From: Escherichia phage vB_EcoP-ZQ2
Length of the DNA stretch: 64,000 nucleotides
Sequence record: NC_070874.1
Reading direction: 5' to 3' (one strand)
Position 1 is the first letter of the stretch; each line of letters starts with the position of its first letter. Positions 46,828-54,422 of the stretch are shown piece after piece. Both the position numbers and the translations under genes were made by a program. The notes under the pieces are model-generated. The model did not search any database. It saw nothing but the letters and a program-made list of their open reading frames with translations, and was not told the origin of the DNA.

Positions 46828-47580
46828 TTAAGCGTAGTATTCAGCCAGATGGTCTAAGAGTTTCTGGGCATCGTTATCAATGTAAGTCTCGGACTTATCA
46901 AACATACCCATTGGGGAACGAAGTCGTTTACCAACCGACTTCTTAGTTGGACGGGTTTGGAATACGTGCTTATATCCTAAGTCACGTTCTTCTTCCGTAA
47001 TTTCAAGCATCTTGTTTCCATACTTCTCCAGTTCTTTAATGTCTACACGCTCTGCATAAACCACTGTAGAGAAGTAGGCTTCAAGCCCGTTATTTTTAAG
47101 AGAACCTTTTACTGGGATGAATGTTTTCATCACACCGGCAGCTTCATCAAGTTCGTCTTTAGCATGAGCAGTAATGATTACTGGCTTACCAAACTTAACG
47201 ACTTTCTGTTGCAGCAGTATCTTAAAGAACTGTGCAAAATCCCCCCATGCTTTCTGCGTGTTTGCAGAAGGCAATACGTACTGGGATTCCAGCATATCCA
47301 TCATGAAGGTTGCTGAGTCAATGATGATACCATCAACATCATCTGCCATTTCTCCACCAGGAGATGCAACATCAAATGCTTCCCAGATTTGATACGGGTC
47401 TTCAATGTTGTAGGTATTGAACTTGTTACGGAAAGGCAGACGCTTACCTGCTTCAGTATTCAGATAGAGCCAGCGTTCCTGGTTCCTGATGTTACGCAGT
47501 GATGCTGATTTACCACTCGCTGAGAATCCTGCAATCAGGATTAGCTGAGTGTTAATATCATTGGGAATTACTTCGGACAT
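46828..47580 (-). CDS. P-loop ATPase (Sak4/RecA-like or AAA-type; replication/recombination accessory)
   Basis: 250 aa; Walker A ILIAGFSASGKS near the N-terminus; Walker B-like GIIIDSAT. Confidence 0.4.
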   Translation of the reverse strand: MSEVIPNDINTQLILIAGFSASGKSASLRNIRNQERWLYLNTEAGKRLPFRNKFNTYNIEDPYQIWEAFDVASPGGEMADDVDGIIIDSATFMMDMLESQYVLPSANTQKAWGDFAQFFKILLQQKVVKFGKPVIITAHAKDELDEAAGVMKTFIPVKGSLKNNGLEAYFSTVVYAERVDIKELEKYGNKMLEITEEERDLGYKHVFQTRPTKKSVGKRLRSPMGMFDKSETYIDNDAQKLLDHLAEYYA

Positions 47581-47636
47581 TATTTTTCCTCATTTAATTT
47601 AGGAGTCCTTCAAACCAAAGAAAGACTCCTGTTTGC

Positions 47637-49790
47637 TTACTTGCCAGCGAAGCGTTTAGCCACGGTGACCATTACGGTTGCATTCAATTCATCATCTGGT
47701 AATGGATTAGCCAGTTTCTTATTGAATGAGTGGACGGCTTGCTGTACTTGGGCAAAGTCCCAACCACTGTCAACCAATGCCAGTGCGTACTTAATCATTT
47801 GATTATTACGATTACCGGTAGCAATACGACTAGCGAACCAACGCTCCAGATTATCCAACGACTGTACTTCCTTCATCTGGTTCCGGAACTGCTCGTTCTT
47901 ACTAGTACGAGGAATAAAGTCACGCACGTCCAACAGATTTGCTTCAAGATTGTAATGATAGGAACCAGTCTCACAGGACATCCATTTCTTGGCTCGTTGG
48001 TTAGCAGATTCATCCGTTTCGAACGGTAGCCAAGACATAACGTTATTCATGAACTCTTTGTATTCCTCGGTGTCGAGGTGTAACTCATAGTTCATTGGAA
48101 TAATCAGTCGGAATCGGTTCTCTTCATCAGAATGACGCTTAGTGGTATAGGTCATGAACTTATATTCCTTCATCAGTTCATGGCACGTATGCAGTGGTAC
48201 TCCACCATCACAGTCAATAACAATCATGTTAAATCCTGGAATAACGTTCTCTTCGGAACGATGGCCATTTTTCATGTGATGGTTTACCCAGTGCATACCG
48301 GGAGCTTGGGTTAATACATGCAACTGGTCGAACGGTACACGTTCACCAATGTAGTCATAAGCAAAGCTATCACTATATGCCACTATCATCTCATTGATGT
48401 CAGTCTCTTTCAGAGTTTCCCCACGGAAGAACTCAATACCTTCATTGAAGGTTTTCTTAATGATGATGTGCTGTTTGTAACCCCATGCTGTAGCAAGGGT
48501 CATCATCTCATTACGGGCTGCATTACCACTCTTATAGAACGGCAATGACTCCAACAAATCAGCATGAGTCACTTCTTTACCTACAGAGGCAATGTACTTA
48601 GCCAGCTTCACATAGGCTTTCTCACGATTGAGAATACCCTGGAATGCTGCCCCGGATTCCTCTACAAGCAGGATTGCTTGTTTAAGGTGAGACATCTCAA
48701 TGAATGAACTCTGGTCAACAAATGCCAGTGCCCCAGCCAGTTTAAGTGCTTTGAAGTAACGGTGTTTTATTTCATTTTTACGGATTTCTTCATGGTCTGA
48801 CATAGCTGCTGCTTGTTTATCACAGTCAACTTTATAGGCCATTGCTGCAATGCCTACATCGTCTTCTACAACCATCCTATAACCGAATAAGTTTGGGTCA
48901 GCTAAATCATGAAATTTATTTGCCCATTTACTAACAGTAATATTGTTATCCGTTTTAATGAGATTTCTGTAAATTTCTTCTGGAGTCATACTCACAAAAG
49001 CTTGTTGGTCTACTTGACCAATTGCAAATAAGCAACGGCGAGCATAACCAGTATCCAGAAAATCATAGAATTGGTCTTCGATTTGACCACCATCTAACAG
49101 CTTACTTGGTGTACCAAAAAGTAGCAGATTAGTAGGAGTCTTACCGTCCAGTTCTTCCCCTCGCTGGCTCTCGGCAGTGTTCTTGGTCAGCTTCTGTTTA
49201 ACCTTACCCTGGTCATATAATTCCAGGAACAGAGTTAATACGTCTGTGTTGGCCAACAGGTTTGAACCAATTTCATCAATCTGAAGGTTGATTGAACCAC
49301 ACCCAGCCATTAACAACTTGTGACGTAATTGTTTAACTGCTGGTGGAGTACCAGAGTCAAACGTAAACGGATATGCCCCAGCACGTTTATATTCTGCTTC
49401 AACTTTATCAAACTCATCATTCTGGTCTGTACCCTGACGAGCAGCACGTTCGTTGGCAATCTTCCATAGGCGGTCATTTGCAATGACGGGCATGGTGTCT
49501 TCCATAAAACGTTTACGGAATCCAGACATAAACCCGTCTTCAATGATATTTACTGAGTGACCTTTACCGAAACCAGATGTAGCCAACGCAATAGCGTAGA
49601 TGTTTACCGGCAGGTCACCACGGTCTTTAGTTACAATGGTTGCACCCATGCAGGATGCCATTTTAGCCAAGAAGTAGGCTACTTCGACACGGAAAAATCC
49701 CCGGTCATTATTCTGGGTTTTATTGCAGAGCACATCTACGATTTCTTCAATCGCCGGATGGTGACTGATGCCAGTAAGGTCGATACTCAT
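47637..49790 (-). CDS. DNA primase (primase-polymerase-like)
   Basis: 717 aa; C-terminal half has an hhhDhD-type motif (NMIVIDCDGG) typical of archaeo-eukaryotic-type primase domains; position between DNA polymerase and SSB. Confidence 0.5.
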   Translation of the reverse strand: MSIDLTGISHHPAIEEIVDVLCNKTQNNDRGFFRVEVAYFLAKMASCMGATIVTKDRGDLPVNIYAIALATSGFGKGHSVNIIEDGFMSGFRKRFMEDTMPVIANDRLWKIANERAARQGTDQNDEFDKVEAEYKRAGAYPFTFDSGTPPAVKQLRHKLLMAGCGSINLQIDEIGSNLLANTDVLTLFLELYDQGKVKQKLTKNTAESQRGEELDGKTPTNLLLFGTPSKLLDGGQIEDQFYDFLDTGYARRCLFAIGQVDQQAFVSMTPEEIYRNLIKTDNNITVSKWANKFHDLADPNLFGYRMVVEDDVGIAAMAYKVDCDKQAAAMSDHEEIRKNEIKHRYFKALKLAGALAFVDQSSFIEMSHLKQAILLVEESGAAFQGILNREKAYVKLAKYIASVGKEVTHADLLESLPFYKSGNAARNEMMTLATAWGYKQHIIIKKTFNEGIEFFRGETLKETDINEMIVAYSDSFAYDYIGERVPFDQLHVLTQAPGMHWVNHHMKNGHRSEENVIPGFNMIVIDCDGGVPLHTCHELMKEYKFMTYTTKRHSDEENRFRLIIPMNYELHLDTEEYKEFMNNVMSWLPFETDESANQRAKKWMSCETGSYHYNLEANLLDVRDFIPRTSKNEQFRNQMKEVQSLDNLERWFASRIATGNRNNQMIKYALALVDSGWDFAQVQQAVHSFNKKLANPLPDDELNATVMVTVAKRFAGK

Positions 49791-50302
49791 TTGATTAATC
49801 CTACGCTCTTATTAGTGACGGCATATTCTCCGAAGTATTTTACGGCAGCTAAGTCATACGCTTTGGCTGCTTCAATTGCTTCCAGGAATACACCTAAATG
49901 AATTGATTTACGGTTTACTTTGATTTTGGCTAAGTAGTTACCCCTGAACTTAGTAACACCCATAAAACCACTGGTATTGTTTTTATTCAGTCCACGGTTA
50001 GCACCATTGGTGCTTTTATCCGCTTCTCTTAGATTGTCTATCCAGTTGTGGTGACGTATGGTGTCTTTATGGTCTATTAAACCAGTAGGCCACATACCGT
50101 ACACGTACAACCAAGCTAACCTATGAGCAGCTTCCCGTTTGGAATCAACTGTTATGTAGAGATAACCGTCACTGTTATTGAGCGACCCAGCAACACTACC
50201 GACAGGTGTTCGGTTACTGAGGGAGATGCGGCGAGTAAATATCCCAGTAAGTGGGTCATAATGCAGCAACTCTTTTAGCCGTTGCTGAGTCAGCTTAATC
50301 AT
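49787..50302 (-). CDS. HNH homing endonuclease with C-terminal AP2 domain (second copy)
   Basis: Start taken at internal ATG 50302 (MIKLTQQRL); HNH_3-like HRLAWLYVYGMWPTGLIDHKDTIRHHNWIDNLREA; AP2-like SGFMGVTKFRGNYLAKIKVNRKSIHLGVFLEAIEAAKAYDLAAVKYFGEYA; ATGA-type overlaps with both neighbouring genes. Confidence 0.75.
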   Translation of the reverse strand: MIKLTQQRLKELLHYDPLTGIFTRRISLSNRTPVGSVAGSLNNSDGYLYITVDSKREAAHRLAWLYVYGMWPTGLIDHKDTIRHHNWIDNLREADKSTNGANRGLNKNNTSGFMGVTKFRGNYLAKIKVNRKSIHLGVFLEAIEAAKAYDLAAVKYFGEYAVTNKSVGLIK

Positions 50303-51279
50303 GATGGAAAATATCTCTCTCTTTGTTTGCAAATGGACGCGACAGGGCAGTATAGACAACGCTTAACCTGCCCCTCCACGACCTTGATAGCACCCTTGCC
50401 ACCTTTTTCAGCCATGAAGATACGAGCAGATGCCATATCGTCAAAGTTTTTAGTACTTCTGGCTCCAGGTACATCTACCTTAGAAGCATCAGAGAAGTAT
50501 TTGAACTGTGGTTCTGTTCGCCACAACTCCTCGTCAGTACATTCAGGAATTTCCTCTTCAGGTGCATTCCAATACTTCTCAATGAGGTGAATCTTCTCTT
50601 CTACCCAACGTTCAGTCTTATCGACAGACAGCAACGGAATATCCTTATGCATAATACGATTAGCAGGATAGTTCGGATTGCTATTAGCCATATGCTTCAT
50701 GAAGTCAGTGAAGATGTAGTTAATACGGATTACATCCTCGGTAATGATGTCGTTGTGAATCCAACGGTACAAGCTGCCTTGCATCTTGTGTTCATCATCA
50801 CGGGAACCAGCAACCCAGGAATAGGTTGAGGTGGACTTAAAGTCTTGCAACAGACCCTCTGTTACGATGTCGAACTTACCACCGATAGTCCAACCCTTAA
50901 CTACCCTGGTTCCACGCTGTTCAATGTAGATTGGGATAAGGTCAGGGTTAGCATCAAAGTCTGCTTTGGTTGGGTTAATGACTACTGCATCAATTACTCG
51001 CTGGGAATAACCTAGCTTCTTCAATGCAGTCTTATGACCCAGCTTCCAGGCTTTCTCGATAGAATCATGTAAACCAGTACCCATTGATGTGGAGACAAAA
51101 TCCATAACATCAATTGACTGGTCACTGAGGTCTACACGATGTTTCATGACGATTTGCTTAATAGGCTTAAGCAATGTGGTAACAGACAGGTACTTAGGAT
51201 TGTCTACGTAATCATACTCATCATGTAGTAGCCATACAGCCAGAGCCAGTGAGACATCATGATTGTTGGTTATCTTCAT
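50299..51279 (-). CDS. putative PD-(D/E)XK-family nuclease (RecB/Cas4-like) with C-terminal Cys cluster
   Basis: 326 aa; C-terminal CLYCPVASIC; central GGKFDIVTEG...DFKS resembles a D...E-x-K active site; lies in the replication module. Confidence 0.4.
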   Translation of the reverse strand: MKITNNHDVSLALAVWLLHDEYDYVDNPKYLSVTTLLKPIKQIVMKHRVDLSDQSIDVMDFVSTSMGTGLHDSIEKAWKLGHKTALKKLGYSQRVIDAVVINPTKADFDANPDLIPIYIEQRGTRVVKGWTIGGKFDIVTEGLLQDFKSTSTYSWVAGSRDDEHKMQGSLYRWIHNDIITEDVIRINYIFTDFMKHMANSNPNYPANRIMHKDIPLLSVDKTERWVEEKIHLIEKYWNAPEEEIPECTDEELWRTEPQFKYFSDASKVDVPGARSTKNFDDMASARIFMAEKGGKGAIKVVEGQVKRCLYCPVASICKQRERYFPS

Positions 51280-51541
51280 TGTAAGCCTTTTTCAATATGC
51301 GATTGGCATAGTGCACAATCTTCTCTGAGTCGTACACCGAAGAGTTTCCAGGTTTACCATTACCCATACGGGCAGCAGCATTTCGCCATAGAGCTTTAAA
51401 GGCACAACCTTCATCGAAGGTCATGCCCAGTGCTTGGATAATATCCTCACACTCTGCTTGATATGGCTCTTGCTCTTTCCGCTGGGGATTCTTAATTAGA
51501 ACTACATAGTAGTTGTTAAGACCACCGGAGAGCTTAGTCAT
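51257..51541 (-). CDS. hypothetical protein (94 aa)
   Basis: ORF track; overlaps neighbours on the same strand. Confidence 0.45.
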   Translation of the reverse strand: MTKLSGGLNNYYVVLIKNPQRKEQEPYQAECEDIIQALGMTFDEGCAFKALWRNAAARMGNGKPGNSSVYDSEKIVHYANRILKKAYNEDNQQS

Positions 51542-51846
51542 TACTTATCCTTTGGAATCATGTTTGCCTGGAACTCTGGTTCAGACATCAGACCCAGATT
51601 GCTAAGAGACAGATAAACAATGTCTTTCAGGTCAACTGAGGTGTCGAAACGTTGATCCAGACTAATCTTCAGTGAGTGATTGGCACGAGCCAAATCTTTA
51701 TAAGTCACATAAGGTTCATCAGTGAGCAACATTGTGTTCATGGTAAGCAGGGAACCATCATCAACTTTAGGAAGTTGGAAGACTACCTGTGCTGCTACCA
51801 TCCAATGATATTTTCTGACTACAGTTTCTTTAGTACTTTTGGTCAT
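51541..51846 (-). CDS. hypothetical protein (101 aa)
   Basis: ORF track; 4-nt overlap with the DNA polymerase gene stop. Confidence 0.5.
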   Translation of the reverse strand: MTKSTKETVVRKYHWMVAAQVVFQLPKVDDGSLLTMNTMLLTDEPYVTYKDLARANHSLKISLDQRFDTSVDLKDIVYLSLSNLGLMSEPEFQANMIPKDK

Positions 51847-54422
51847 GCGAATGCCTTTTGAATTATTTGATGAACTTCTTCTGGGGTAGCGTGATTTGGA
51901 ATTTCAATCTCGTTAGCCCACGTTGGGTAAAACAAGGATAGTTCCCCACCCAAACCAACTTCTGGATGAGCAATATCAGGATGGTCTTGCCAGTTAACGG
52001 CCTCAACCAAGTGCTTGTTCGTGAATTGCAAAGTATCCATGTTGTCACGAATCATGAAGTACTGAGCATCGTGAATGTGAATACTAGGACGAATATCTAA
52101 CCTGAACTCACTGGCTCTGACTTTACGCATAAATTCTGAACCAGCACGGTTATTCAGTAGACACCAGCTTTGCCCTAAAGCATTACCAGCAGTTCTGCCT
52201 TCTGCTTCTGCTTCATACGGAGTCTTACATGTCCCACGTAATACTTGAGCCAGTAAAGGAGTACGCACTCTCAAACCGAATGCGGCAGTAACATAACCAG
52301 TTTTGGCAGCTTCGTCTAGCTTAGCCTGAACCCATCTGTCACTAACTACATAGAGATCGTGATAACGTTTCTCTGTAGTTTTAGCCTTCTCTTCAGAGAA
52401 GCCACAGTTTTTCATTAAGCCCATATAAGTACCACCATAGGTAAGCAGGAAGGTTGGAGCCTTCGAGTCACTACGCAATGATTTGTACTTATGCTGGATG
52501 GAGTTAATGGATTCTACCGTATCTTCAATGTCTGGCATCTGCTCACCAAAGTAAGCATACGCACGAAGACTGTGACCATCATAACCATCGGTATACACCT
52601 TAAGCTTCTGTGGGTCTTTGGTAGTTAAAGCTGAGATACGGTCTTCAAGGCTCGCAAAGTCCAGTCCACAAAATATCCAACCCGGTGGTGCTTCGAAGCA
52701 TTTCTTAATCTTCTTGGCGTATTTGGAGCCAGATGGAATGGTTTGCAGGTTTGGTTCAGAGGCAGATAATCTACCAGAAACCGTTCCCCCCAAATTGAGG
52801 TTGCCGAATAGGTAGTGCCATCCATCCGGCCCAGGTTGGGCATTTCTAAAGGCCGGTATGAAGCTAGTGATAATCTTATCCACGAGCTTATAGTCGATAA
52901 GTGCATTGAGCAGTTCCTTAACATCGTCACTCTGCGTATGCGTACGCAGTGCTTTAATAGTGTCACCGTCAGTAGCAGGTTGCTTGCTCTTAGTGAGTCC
53001 AAGAACCGGTAAGCCAATATAATCAAATAATAATTTCTGTAACTGTGGACCGGAGTTAGGATTAAACTCGATGTCACAGTCAGCAAGTGTTACTTGTTTC
53101 TTCTTGAGCTTAGCATTCTTATCATCTACCCATTCCTGACGAAGCATCAGGGTGAAGTTCTTCATGAGCTTGGACTCACGAATAGTTTTCAGAGCCTGGT
53201 TCCTGTCAGTTTCCATCTCCTTAGCTACTTGGTTAACGGTATCCATATTCATGGGCATACCGGTTAACTGCATCTGAATGATGTCTTCACAGGCTGGCTT
53301 AAAGATGTTGTTGTAAACATCCAGTTGGTCATCAGCAATGAGGGTATCCCAGTGCTTCTCGTAGGTATACCACGTACATAAACCGTCAATAAGGTTGTAG
53401 CGTAACAATTGCTCATTAGGAATAAGACGAATGTCTTTAATATCATCCTGAGCATAGTTACCAGCATACTCCTGAGCCTGGTCTTTCAGACTAAGGTGAT
53501 TACCGGCACAGCTGTTAGTAGCTAAGTAGGTGATTAGCTTAGTGCAATCCCAGTTACGTAGCATGATATCCATGCCATGCAATAAGCCTTCTGTATCAAT
53601 CAGGTTATCCATGAATAACTGATAGATAAGCACGTACACGTCATAGCTAATGTTGTGATACATCTGTCGTTGTGTGTACTTAATGAAGAACTCACGGAGA
53701 AGATTTCGAACAATATCATTTCTGTTTATACGCCCGTATGGTGCTTCAGTAGCCCCAGGAATTGGCTCGTAGTCCACATTAAAGGCTATGCCTTGTGTCT
53801 TACTCCAACAGAATGTAATTGTCCCTATACCGGCGTTATAATGCTTTAAACCGAATGCTTCGATGTCTATAGCCAAAGGCTTATTCATCTCAAGCAACTG
53901 GTCTAGCCAGGCTTTAATCTTCTCTGGAGTATCCGGGTAGGCTTCAAACTCAATGATTCCTTGACCTGGTTCAGCATACTGACCACGTATGTGGTTAAGT
54001 AATGCATCCATACCCTGAGCAATCTTGGCTTTTACTACAGGTGGGTCATAGAAGACCTGCCTGTAGCTGGGTGTATAGATAACCTTCTGTTTACCCCATA
54101 CTGAGTCACAAACATAGCCGAGGTTAGCCTCTGCTTTAGCTTCTTTAGTCAGTATTTTGAAGTAATCAGAATCGGTACAGATAATGTACTGAGTTTCTGC
54201 ATCATCCAGTACTTGTTGCAGTTCCTGCTGTATGAACTCTTTAATTTCCCTTGCAGGAGTCTTCTTCTTGCCTGGGGCAGAATGAAGTTCAATGAAGATG
54301 AAATCTTCCATGCTTAGGTCATTAGGCAGCAGGTAGGTTTTAATCATCTCCTCCCTTCGGATTTGATGACCGAGGATAGCAATAGGATACTTACCCGTAT
54401 CCTGAGAGGTGATGTAACGCAT
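51843..54422 (-). CDS. DNA polymerase, family A (Pol I-like) with 3'-5' exonuclease domain
   Basis: 859 aa; exo motif AIDIEAFGL; motif A CGLDFASLEDRI; motif B KAPTFLLTYGGTYMG; motif C IHIHDAQYF. Confidence 0.9.
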   Translation of the reverse strand: MRYITSQDTGKYPIAILGHQIRREEMIKTYLLPNDLSMEDFIFIELHSAPGKKKTPAREIKEFIQQELQQVLDDAETQYIICTDSDYFKILTKEAKAEANLGYVCDSVWGKQKVIYTPSYRQVFYDPPVVKAKIAQGMDALLNHIRGQYAEPGQGIIEFEAYPDTPEKIKAWLDQLLEMNKPLAIDIEAFGLKHYNAGIGTITFCWSKTQGIAFNVDYEPIPGATEAPYGRINRNDIVRNLLREFFIKYTQRQMYHNISYDVYVLIYQLFMDNLIDTEGLLHGMDIMLRNWDCTKLITYLATNSCAGNHLSLKDQAQEYAGNYAQDDIKDIRLIPNEQLLRYNLIDGLCTWYTYEKHWDTLIADDQLDVYNNIFKPACEDIIQMQLTGMPMNMDTVNQVAKEMETDRNQALKTIRESKLMKNFTLMLRQEWVDDKNAKLKKKQVTLADCDIEFNPNSGPQLQKLLFDYIGLPVLGLTKSKQPATDGDTIKALRTHTQSDDVKELLNALIDYKLVDKIITSFIPAFRNAQPGPDGWHYLFGNLNLGGTVSGRLSASEPNLQTIPSGSKYAKKIKKCFEAPPGWIFCGLDFASLEDRISALTTKDPQKLKVYTDGYDGHSLRAYAYFGEQMPDIEDTVESINSIQHKYKSLRSDSKAPTFLLTYGGTYMGLMKNCGFSEEKAKTTEKRYHDLYVVSDRWVQAKLDEAAKTGYVTAAFGLRVRTPLLAQVLRGTCKTPYEAEAEGRTAGNALGQSWCLLNNRAGSEFMRKVRASEFRLDIRPSIHIHDAQYFMIRDNMDTLQFTNKHLVEAVNWQDHPDIAHPEVGLGGELSLFYPTWANEIEIPNHATPEEVHQIIQKAFA

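Follow-up and report, generated by a model that had tools for sequence, protein, structure and literature searches.

Genes joining an HNH nuclease to an AP2 DNA-binding domain form an established class among the homing endonuclease genes of phages (PMC2993671, PMC10448857). The HNH-AP2 genes of the T4-related phages RB16, RB43, RB49 and JSE, the 'IPA-HNH' of ICP1 and the HNH-AP2 proteins of cyanobacteria and ciliates share this two-domain architecture with the protein described here, which is 46% identical to 'homing endonuclease 3' of RB16. However, their insertion sites and hosts differ, and the ICP1 HNH domains are too divergent for Pfam HNH_3, which does match our protein. Another related enzyme is I-HmuI of Bacillus phage SPO1 (PDB 1U3E), an HNH homing endonuclease that nicks one strand; by analogy, the present protein may be a nickase as well. 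I-HmuI is encoded by a group I intron and has a helical (HTH) C-terminal DNA-binding region, whereas the present protein is free-standing and carries an AP2 domain.

Like the present gene, T4 mobE and other free-standing HNH genes of T4 lie between essential genes of nucleotide and DNA metabolism. The ORFs of T4 free-standing endonucleases commonly overlap the upstream ORF, the UAAUGA of mobE/nrdA being read as a translational coupling that limits expression, and these endonucleases spread with co-conversion of their flanks (PMC2988022). They have other DNA-binding domains and belong to another phage family than the gene studied here, which, unlike mobE, overlaps the downstream gene too. No experimentally characterised homing system in N4-like phages was found in the literature.

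The gene analysed lies in a stretch of 64,000 nucleotides from Escherichia phage vB_EcoP-ZQ2 (NC_070874.1), referred to as a whole as the window. The phage is a Gamaleyavirus (G7C-like Schitoviridae, an N4-like coliphage). The ORF list and translation place an HNH-AP2 ORF of 171 amino acids at 49787-50302 on the minus strand, from ATG to TGA. Its translation, Pfam and PHROG matches, and identity to annotated genes make it very probably a selfish, free-standing HNH-AP2 homing endonuclease gene, located in the exonuclease/primase stop/start overlap of Gamaleyavirus. A profile search assigns it to PHROG 99 ('HNH endonuclease', 1.5e-65). The gene is of a known kind, its PhAPEC5 counterpart already carrying the label of a putative homing endonuclease. 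The existing GenBank annotations of close relatives all read 'putative', and cleavage, nicking and super-Mendelian inheritance are, for them as for this gene, predictions. No matching family was returned by an NCBIfam search of the protein, and its base composition (GC 42.4% vs 42.9% for the window) gives no foreign signal.

The I-HmuI-like nuclease module covers approximately residues 40-120 (49943..50185, minus strand). Its core, residues 58-100 (50003-50131), matches Pfam HNH_3 with 41.5 bits against a cut-off of 24.8 (E 1.1e-10), and structure comparison indicates that the module resembles a solved member of the HNH_3/I-HmuI-like family in fold. The catalytic D77-H78 and the conserved N86, N90, R92, N99 and N102 are all in place, in the order D77-H78 … N86 … N90-L-R92 … N99 … N102. 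Among 102 homologues, H78, R92 and N99 are invariant and the remaining residues of this set are at least 90% conserved.

The AP2 DNA-binding domain is located C-terminal to the HNH domain, at approximately residues 112-160 (49823..49969, minus strand), and is formed by a three-stranded sheet followed by a helix. Although its Pfam AP2 score is below the cut-off (14.9-17.4 bits vs 33.3), the domain is real, as supported by both sequence and fold. A phmmer search against the PDB matched the AP2 domain of WRI1 at 2.8e-8, and the family profile matches WRI1 at 3.8e-12, as well as TEM1, ERF096 and AtERF1. Around half of the homologues have precomputed matches to both HNH_3 and AP2.

The upstream neighbour is an exonuclease of the PD-(D/E)XK type homologous to N4 gp42 (50299..51279, minus strand; PHROG 2139, 4e-151, with a weak PD-(D/E)XK match), and the downstream neighbour is the DNA primase, the homologue of N4 gp43 (47637..49790, minus strand; PHROG 2135, E = 0; PriCT_1, 9.4e-7; N4 synteny). 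The plus strand reads TCAT at 49787-49790 and at 50299-50302, that is, ATGA on the coding strand. At 50299..50302 (minus strand), the exonuclease TGA (50301-50299) overlaps the endonuclease ATG (50302-50300), as seen in the sequence and in the alignment with empty sites. At 49787..49790 (minus strand), the endonuclease TGA (49789-49787) overlaps the primase ATG (49790-49788) in the same manner. The sequence and the domain matches therefore bear out the original prediction of an HNH-AP2 endonuclease gene between nuclease and primase genes, with four-nucleotide ATGA overlaps at both ends.

The endonuclease, exonuclease and primase ORFs are in three different frames, each with its own stop, which rules out the ORF being a misannotated extension of a neighbour, an alternative raised with that prediction. 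The exonuclease (326 aa) and the primase (717 aa) have the same lengths as in empty-site genomes. These full-length neighbours, combined with zero Rfam matches in 47000-52000 at E <= 1, rule out a group I intron, another RNA element or an intein. The DNA polymerase and gp40 genes of the same operon likewise overlap by 4 nt. Since genes of this operon typically overlap by ATGA, the overlaps alone are unremarkable.

A longer, TTG-started form of the endonuclease is possible (to 50359, 190 aa), and the PhAPEC5 annotation begins at this upstream TTG, unlike the ATG in the window. The ATG position is the start in all of the orthologues of 63-80% identity, two of which have their own Shine-Dalgarno sequence there. 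A scan for sigma-70-like promoters around the gene gave 4 sites against 8.3 expected from shuffles, N4-type middle promoters lying outside the scan. Terminator-like matches numbered 6, all weak and none convincing, where 2.5 were expected. Inhibitory RNA structure is not predicted at either junction, where folding is no better than in shuffles (z = +0.8 to +1.8). A hairpin that masks the ribosome-binding site, the kind of regulation found in T4 I-TevI or segB, is thereby rejected.

Since no promoter or terminator stands out and no inhibitory RNA structure is predicted, expression by translational coupling inside the replication operon, as originally suggested, seems the most plausible route. 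The endonuclease would be translated from the operon mRNA via re-initiation at the exonuclease stop (ATGA), using the region where primase translation is initiated in genomes with an empty site. The sequence 5' of the endonuclease ATG is the same as that preceding the primase ATG in genomes without the insert. An AGGA Shine-Dalgarno-like motif is found 8 nt 5' of the primase ATG (49799..49802, minus strand), within the last endonuclease codons (…GTA GGA TTA ATC AAA TGA), and it is kept in PBM-3, PhAPEC5, Moo19 and L084. We infer that this motif would serve primase initiation, the end of the endonuclease gene providing an AGGA-N8-ATG site.

The same gene, at the same site and with both ATGA overlaps, is present in PhAPEC5 (gp46, AGV99328.1), PBM-2, PBM-3 and UE-M6, where it appears as 'putative HNH homing endonuclease', and in the Shigella phage Moo19 (gp58). 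Identity to the window copy is 98.2-98.5% in nucleotides and 97.7-98.2% in amino acids for the first four phages, and 80% in amino acids for Moo19. In comparison with the PhAPEC5/PBM relatives, the window copy is accompanied by an HK2-like exonuclease allele, a short gp41 variant and a primase divergent at nt 301-900.

In 42 sequenced relatives, the exonuclease/primase junction is empty in 34, contains the 512-bp insert in five and holds another HNH-AP2 gene (~475 bp) in three. Carrier and empty alleles of one site thus occur naturally in about 40 sequenced coliphages. The empty relatives, which include G7C and St11Ph5, share with N4 a direct ATGA overlap of exonuclease and primase; the junction spans 301 nt in empty genomes vs 813 nt in carriers. 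The empty-site junction of the St11Ph5/G7C type is ATTGACCTTACCGGAGTAGTGCA, and that of the HK2 type is ATTGACCTGACCGGAGTCACTCA. Synteny with relatives lacking the gene, a comparison proposed from the start, accordingly reveals a precise insert at an uninterrupted ATGA junction. The ATGA at 49787..49790 duplicates the ancestral overlap, and with one ATGA counted the insert measures 512 bp. The tight overlaps had been taken as a mark of long adaptation; they are not, because both derive from the ancestral exonuclease/primase overlap, which the insert repeats.

The embedding of the gene in the replication operon with coupled translation, beside an exonuclease and nearby genes for a Sak4-like annealing protein, a single-stranded DNA-binding protein (SSB) and a RuvC-like protein, could point to a domesticated component of replication or recombination, for example, a nickase starting recombination-dependent replication and co-expressed with exonuclease and primase. 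This is highly improbable in the light of the census: far from being universally conserved in the family, the gene is missing from 34 of the 42 relatives, and N4, G7C and St11Ph5 replicate without it. Moreover, a different HNH-AP2 gene (32% identical) takes its place in three phages, and it diverges in the manner of an element that moves horizontally. The role in replication or recombination that the original prediction had entertained is therefore not supported. As a mobile selfish gene rather than a part of the replication machinery, the endonuclease gene would have little import beyond annotation.

Copies of the gene in the window, PBM-3/UE-M6 and PhAPEC5 share 98.2-99.0% identity. These represent three backgrounds; their exonuclease and primase genes agree at 92-95%, and there each has an empty-site phage as its nearest relative. 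Incongruence between the gene and its flanks was assessed by pairwise identities of 11 loci. Among carriers, dS is 0.036 for the gene but 0.26 for the exonuclease, 0.49 for the primase and 0.58 for gp44, a 7- to 16-fold difference within Gamaleyavirus. Because of this gap between gene and flanks, recent and horizontal spread within the genus is the conclusion drawn from the sequence comparison, and the proposal of an old insertion is wrong at this level. Orthologues of 80%, 69% and 63% identity are located between exonuclease and primase in Moo19 and other N4-like contigs. As they occupy the site in other N4-like phages, the association of the lineage with the exonuclease/primase site is judged to be old, although the insertion within the genus is not. 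A JGI metagenome scan found no relative above about 53-55% identity in other genomic contexts, and an IMG/VR search returned known isolates only.

These orthologues at the same site in other genera, with a gene dS vs Moo19 (0.94) near that of the flanks (1.1-2.1), would also be expected from an old, vertically inherited insertion that suffered many precise losses instead of repeated gains. Such a history is nevertheless quite improbable given the low dS of the gene within Gamaleyavirus. In addition, the flanking genes of carriers do not have their nearest relatives in other carriers, and the carrier-type primase patch described below, the expected remnant of a deletion, was seen in no empty-site Gamaleyavirus genome when the first 90 nt of the primase were compared.

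The dN/dS ratio of 0.13 vs Moo19, over approximately 20% protein divergence, indicates purifying selection on the gene, that is, selection for function, as far as substitution patterns can tell. Among near-identical copies the ratio is 0.28, a figure with only ~8 substitutions behind it, and vs Moo19 the ratio of the gene is 2-4 times that of the flanks. Both values would suit an inactive or decaying relic with an open frame and no cutting activity, kept since imprecise removal harms primase translation, for which the gene provides the AGGA motif, and moved passively by general recombination. Extensive recombination and module exchange have been described among G7C-like phages, so that part of the spread could indeed be passive (bioRxiv 10.1101/542787). 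Still, a relic is unlikely, as the catalytic and metal-ligand residues are all intact and invariant and the ratio of 0.13 reflects purifying selection. As far as the insert edge, the window exonuclease allele resembles those of HK2 and St11Ph5, both empty-site phages; its last 100 nt have 0 differences from HK2, 4 from PBM-3 and 6 from PhAPEC5. Conversion initiated by a break would fit better than random recombination, because copies in three backgrounds share 98-99% identity and the crossovers hug the gene.

A candidate target of the endonuclease is found in the primase gene, where a patch at nt 9-30 (49761..49782, minus strand) is polymorphic between carriers and empty-site genomes. Carriers read …ACT GGY ATM AGY… (T-G-I-S), whereas empty-site genomes read …ACC GGA GTM RYK… (T-G-V-V/T). 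Compared with St11Ph5, Bas96 and G7C, the patch differs at 8-9 of 22 positions vs 6-9 of the 270 positions after it (Fisher p 5e-8 to 4e-6). The rule is obeyed at nine of nine empty-site loci and at all carrier loci read directly; for carriers of the EC1-UPM type, the primase start was examined in EC1-UPM. Identity to the window over the first 90 nt of the primase is 97.8-98.9% for the four Gamaleyavirus carriers, and it does not exceed 92.3% in any Gamaleyavirus with an empty site. Moo19, from another genus, is only 83.3% identical over this region, yet it keeps the T-G-I-S codons; it was assigned to the rule by these codons.

This polymorphism suggests that the patch is the endonuclease target, recoded in carriers for resistance to cutting, and also a co-converted marker. 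It may, however, just be a leftover of the original donor sequence. The real cleavage site could also be elsewhere, because the free-standing endonucleases of T4 often have cleavage sites hundreds of bp from their own gene (PMC2988022); the candidate site here is 9-30 bp from the insert.

I-HmuI-type enzymes are nickases. Under the homing model, when a carrier shares its host cell with a relative that lacks the gene, the AP2 domain and the N-terminal sheet would bind the intact exonuclease/primase junction, most likely contacting primase nt ~9-30, and the HNH site would nick or cut there. The break would be processed and then repaired by recombination with the carrier genome as template, steps that the phage exonuclease, Sak4-like annealing protein, SSB and RuvC-like genes could carry out. 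The gene would thereby be copied in, along with a short tract downstream of it. Carriers would escape cutting because the insert interrupts the site and the neighbouring patch encodes T-G-I-S instead of T-G-V-V/T.

Other HNH-AP2 genes are found in the same neighbourhood. G7C gp41.1 (51% identical) is located on the opposite side of the exonuclease, with a 4-nt overlap with it. The endonuclease of EC1-UPM, U1G and PGN829.1 (32% identical) occupies the very same gp42/gp43 junction and came with N4-like flanking sequence. Both are lineages distinct from the present gene, presumably with different target sequences. A bolder, tentative and on balance doubtful proposal is that the present gene and its target form a compact pair, with recognition of the first ~30 bp of primase adjoining the insertion point and immunity through T-G-I-S. 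The gene would be hard to lose after taking over the primase initiation region and supplying its own replacement, and, with gp41.1 and the second junction lineage, gp41-gp43 would be a small 'endonuclease island' that drives allele exchange in N4-like phages and possibly excludes the replication genes of competitors.

N4-like phages are used in phage therapy work, and genes of this kind shape mosaicism around replication genes. The 20-bp candidate target/immunity patch, together with a second endonuclease competing for the junction, could offer a simple model for homing and marker exclusion.

Finally, the gene at 44263-44760, regarded in the original prediction as a paralog, does share the architecture (HNH_3, 3.5e-17; AP2, 2.2e-6), but paralogy was an overstatement. 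Alignment of the two products gives 30% identity over 123 residues (E = 2e-7). Their closest relatives differ as well: the gene at 49787-50302 has 98% matches in PhAPEC5/PBM-3, and that at 44263-44760 has a 98% match in G7C only. The low identity and these matches in other phages rule out a recent intragenomic duplication, and the gene at 44263-44760 is, on these comparisons, a distant homologue that was independently acquired.

The HNH-AP2 ORF (49787-50302, minus strand; ATG to TGA, 171 aa) lies between an upstream exonuclease ORF (50299-51279, minus strand; PHROG 2139 'exonuclease', 4e-151, with a weak PD-(D/E)XK match) and a downstream primase ORF (47637-49790, minus strand; PHROG 2135 'DNA primase', PriCT_1 domain). 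By synteny, these neighbours are homologous to gp42 and gp43 of phage N4, respectively. TCAT on the plus strand at 49787-49790 and 50299-50302 reads as ATGA on the coding strand: the exonuclease stop overlaps the endonuclease start, and the endonuclease stop overlaps the primase start, as the original prediction had described. Each of the three ORFs is in a different frame, which rules out a misannotated extension of a neighbour.

The Pfam HNH_3 cut-off (24.8) was clearly exceeded (41.5 bits), while the AP2 scores (14.9-17.4 bits) were under the cut-off of 33.3. A PDB search with the single sequence matched the AP2 domains of Arabidopsis WRI1 (2.8e-8) and TEM1. A profile of 102 homologues matched WRI1 (3.8e-12), TEM1, ERF096 and AtERF1, and its positions 40-120 matched the HNH homing endonuclease I-HmuI (9.8e-8). 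The AlphaFold model built from the 102-homologue alignment is confident (pLDDT 95.4). Within the family, H78, R92 and N99 show no variation; conservation of D77, N86, N90 and N102 is 90% or higher. The conserved catalytic residues and the domain matches indicate an intact nuclease site, and the protein is predicted to be an I-HmuI-like HNH nuclease with the AP2 domain as C-terminal DNA-binding module.

G7C-like coliphages (Gamaleyavirus, Schitoviridae) match the region at 90-93% identity. In the gene-free HK2, St11Ph5, Bas96 and G7C, and in N4, exonuclease and primase are joined by a direct ATGA overlap; the gene thus lies in this overlap as a 512-bp insert, with the overlap repeated at both ends, and synteny with these relatives shows a precise presence/absence. 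When all phage records were searched with the 301-nt empty junction, the gp42/gp43 junction was uninterrupted in 34 named phages, carried the 512-bp insert in five (PBM-2, PBM-3, UE-M6, PhAPEC5 and Moo19, of the genus Moovirus) and carried a different insert of ~475 bp in three (EC1-UPM, U1G and PGN829.1), encoding a different HNH-AP2 protein with just 32% identity to that of the 512-bp insert. A third HNH-AP2 lineage, represented by G7C gp41.1 (51% identity), is found in several phages on the opposite side of the exonuclease. The gene is therefore not universally conserved, and the suggested role in replication finds no support, the junction being uninterrupted in those 34 phages and in N4. 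Nor is the 'tight integration' a later adaptation, since the overlaps were inherited from the empty site.

Translational coupling to the replication operon, also proposed, is plausible. The ATG of the gene occupies the position of the primase ATG in empty genomes, with identical upstream sequence, and its last codons (GTA GGA TTA ATC AAA TGA) place AGGA 8 nt 5' of the primase ATG. These two features favour re-initiation at both ATGA overlaps as the most plausible mode of translation. No conspicuous sigma-70-like promoter or terminator was seen around the gene in a scan that excludes N4-type promoters, and no stable RNA structure at either junction (z = +0.8 to +1.8). There is precedent in T4, where the start of free-standing endonuclease genes likewise overlaps the upstream ORF in 5 of 12 cases, and where the UAAUGA of mobE/nrdA has been read as a coupling that holds endonuclease levels low (PMC2988022).

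There is evidence that the gene has moved horizontally. Its copies in the window, PBM-3/UE-M6 and PhAPEC5 share 98.2-99.0% identity, against 94-95% for the exonuclease and 92-93% for the 3' two-thirds of the primase. Compared with PhAPEC5, the window shows a synonymous divergence of 0.036 for the gene, against 0.26 for the exonuclease, 0.49 for the primase and 0.58 for gp44. For every carrier compared, the closest phage in the flanks is an empty-site one (HK2/St11Ph5/pSb-1 for the window, Bas96/G7C for PhAPEC5, St11Ph5 for PBM-3). The window exonuclease allele is HK2-like up to the insert (no difference over its final 100 nt, versus 4-6 for other carriers), and its gp41 is the short HK2 variant, not the long PBM-3/PhAPEC5 one. 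The locus is a mosaic in which a junction lies near the gene. In base composition, the gene does not differ from the rest of the genome. A dN/dS of 0.13 against the more distant Moo19 copy indicates purifying selection, although selection on the neighbours is estimated as 2-4 times stronger.

Orthologues at 80% (Moo19 and two SRA-derived contigs), 69% and 63% identity all lie between exonuclease and primase on N4-like contigs, and no relatives above 53% identity were found in other contexts in JGI metagenomes; together, these argue for a lineage that is old at this site. In the 69% and 63% orthologues (N4-like loci L079, 3001-3510, and L082, 3001-3498), spacers of 8-15 nt and Shine-Dalgarno sequences of their own take the place of the ATGA overlaps, so the overlap is a property of the Gamaleyavirus/Moovirus site rather than of the element. 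The predicted 'old insertion' hence holds for the lineage at the site, but spread within Gamaleyavirus is recent.

After the insert, carriers read ATG AGT ATY GAC CTT ACT GGY ATM AGY CAC (T-G-I-S), whereas every empty-site genome read has ACC/ACT GGA GTM RYK CA (T-G-V-V or T-G-V-T). Over primase nt 9-30 (window 49761-49782), St11Ph5, Bas96 and G7C differ from the window at 8-9 of 22 positions, but at only 6-9 in the following 270 nt (Fisher p 5e-8 to 4e-6). In a search of all phage records with primase nt 1-90, the four Gamaleyavirus carriers were 97.8-98.9% identical to the window and empty-site Gamaleyavirus each at most 92.3%; Moo19, from another genus, was only 83.3% identical yet kept the T-G-I-S codons. 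We infer that this patch is a candidate site of recognition or cleavage in empty genomes, and that carriers have a recoded version co-transferred with the gene. Free-standing endonucleases of T4 often cleave at a distance from the genes that encode them (PMC2988022).

HNH-AP2 genes form an accepted class among the homing endonuclease genes of phages: a table lists them for T4-related phages (PMC2993671), and a discussion of ICP1 and other phages notes that such genes gather around essential genes and bracket them (PMC10448857). In G7C-like phages, exchange of modules has been reported to involve endonuclease-related genes (bioRxiv 10.1101/542787). Judged by its sequence, the gene shows the domain architecture, intact neighbours, sporadic precise insertion and history distinct from its flanks that define free-standing homing endonuclease genes, with the primase patch as a candidate target-site difference, and is best classed as a putative one of the HNH-AP2 type. 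It is a 98% allele of a gene of known kind, already labelled 'putative HNH homing endonuclease' in PhAPEC5 and later records. What is added here is a defined empty site with a candidate 20-bp target/immunity patch, and a gp42/gp43 junction contested by two endonuclease lineages.

The other HNH-AP2 gene of the window (44263-44760, minus strand; HNH_3 3.5e-17, AP2 2.2e-6) has the same architecture, as predicted. However, it is not a paralog in the sense of duplication within the genome, which is excluded by the 30% identity between the two copies and by its one close match in 50,697 phage records, a G7C gene (98.2% aa; next best 49%). It is another sporadic and probably mobile endonuclease gene, and the two were acquired independently from a large family (PHROG 99). 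It lies near the only tRNA of the window (tRNA-Ile, anticodon AAT, 43103-43177).

Other variation surrounds the locus. The 162-aa occupant of the EC1-UPM junction (locus L026, 5781-6269), also found in U1G and PGN829.1, shares 4 nt with the exonuclease and 8 nt with the primase. In EC1-UPM, the adjoining sequences are N4-like (exonuclease end RYYP*; primase start MIDL, with the Ser codon missing), which suggests arrival with its flanks from a more distant donor. The polymorphic gp41 (51257-51541, minus strand) has a 94-aa form in the window, HK2, pSb-1 and Bas96, overlapping the exonuclease by 23 nt, and a ~155-aa form in PBM-3, PhAPEC5, St11Ph5 and G7C; among carriers, only the window combines short gp41 with the endonuclease gene. 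In G7C-type phages, the HNH gene gp41.1 lies between gp41 and the exonuclease. Primase nt 301-900 (window ~48891-49490, minus strand) is 78-84% identical to every relative compared, against 92-98% for the remainder, and could be a hypervariable segment or a recombinant one from an unsampled lineage. An endonuclease-containing insertion occurs in the Sak4-like gene of Bas96, annotated as a joined CDS. Finally, in the annotation of PhAPEC5, a 672-bp intron with another HNH gene splits the DNA polymerase (locus L022, 8046-11203), and locus L084 likewise has a split polymerase with an HNH ORF inside; the window polymerase (51843-54422) is an uninterrupted ORF of 859 aa.
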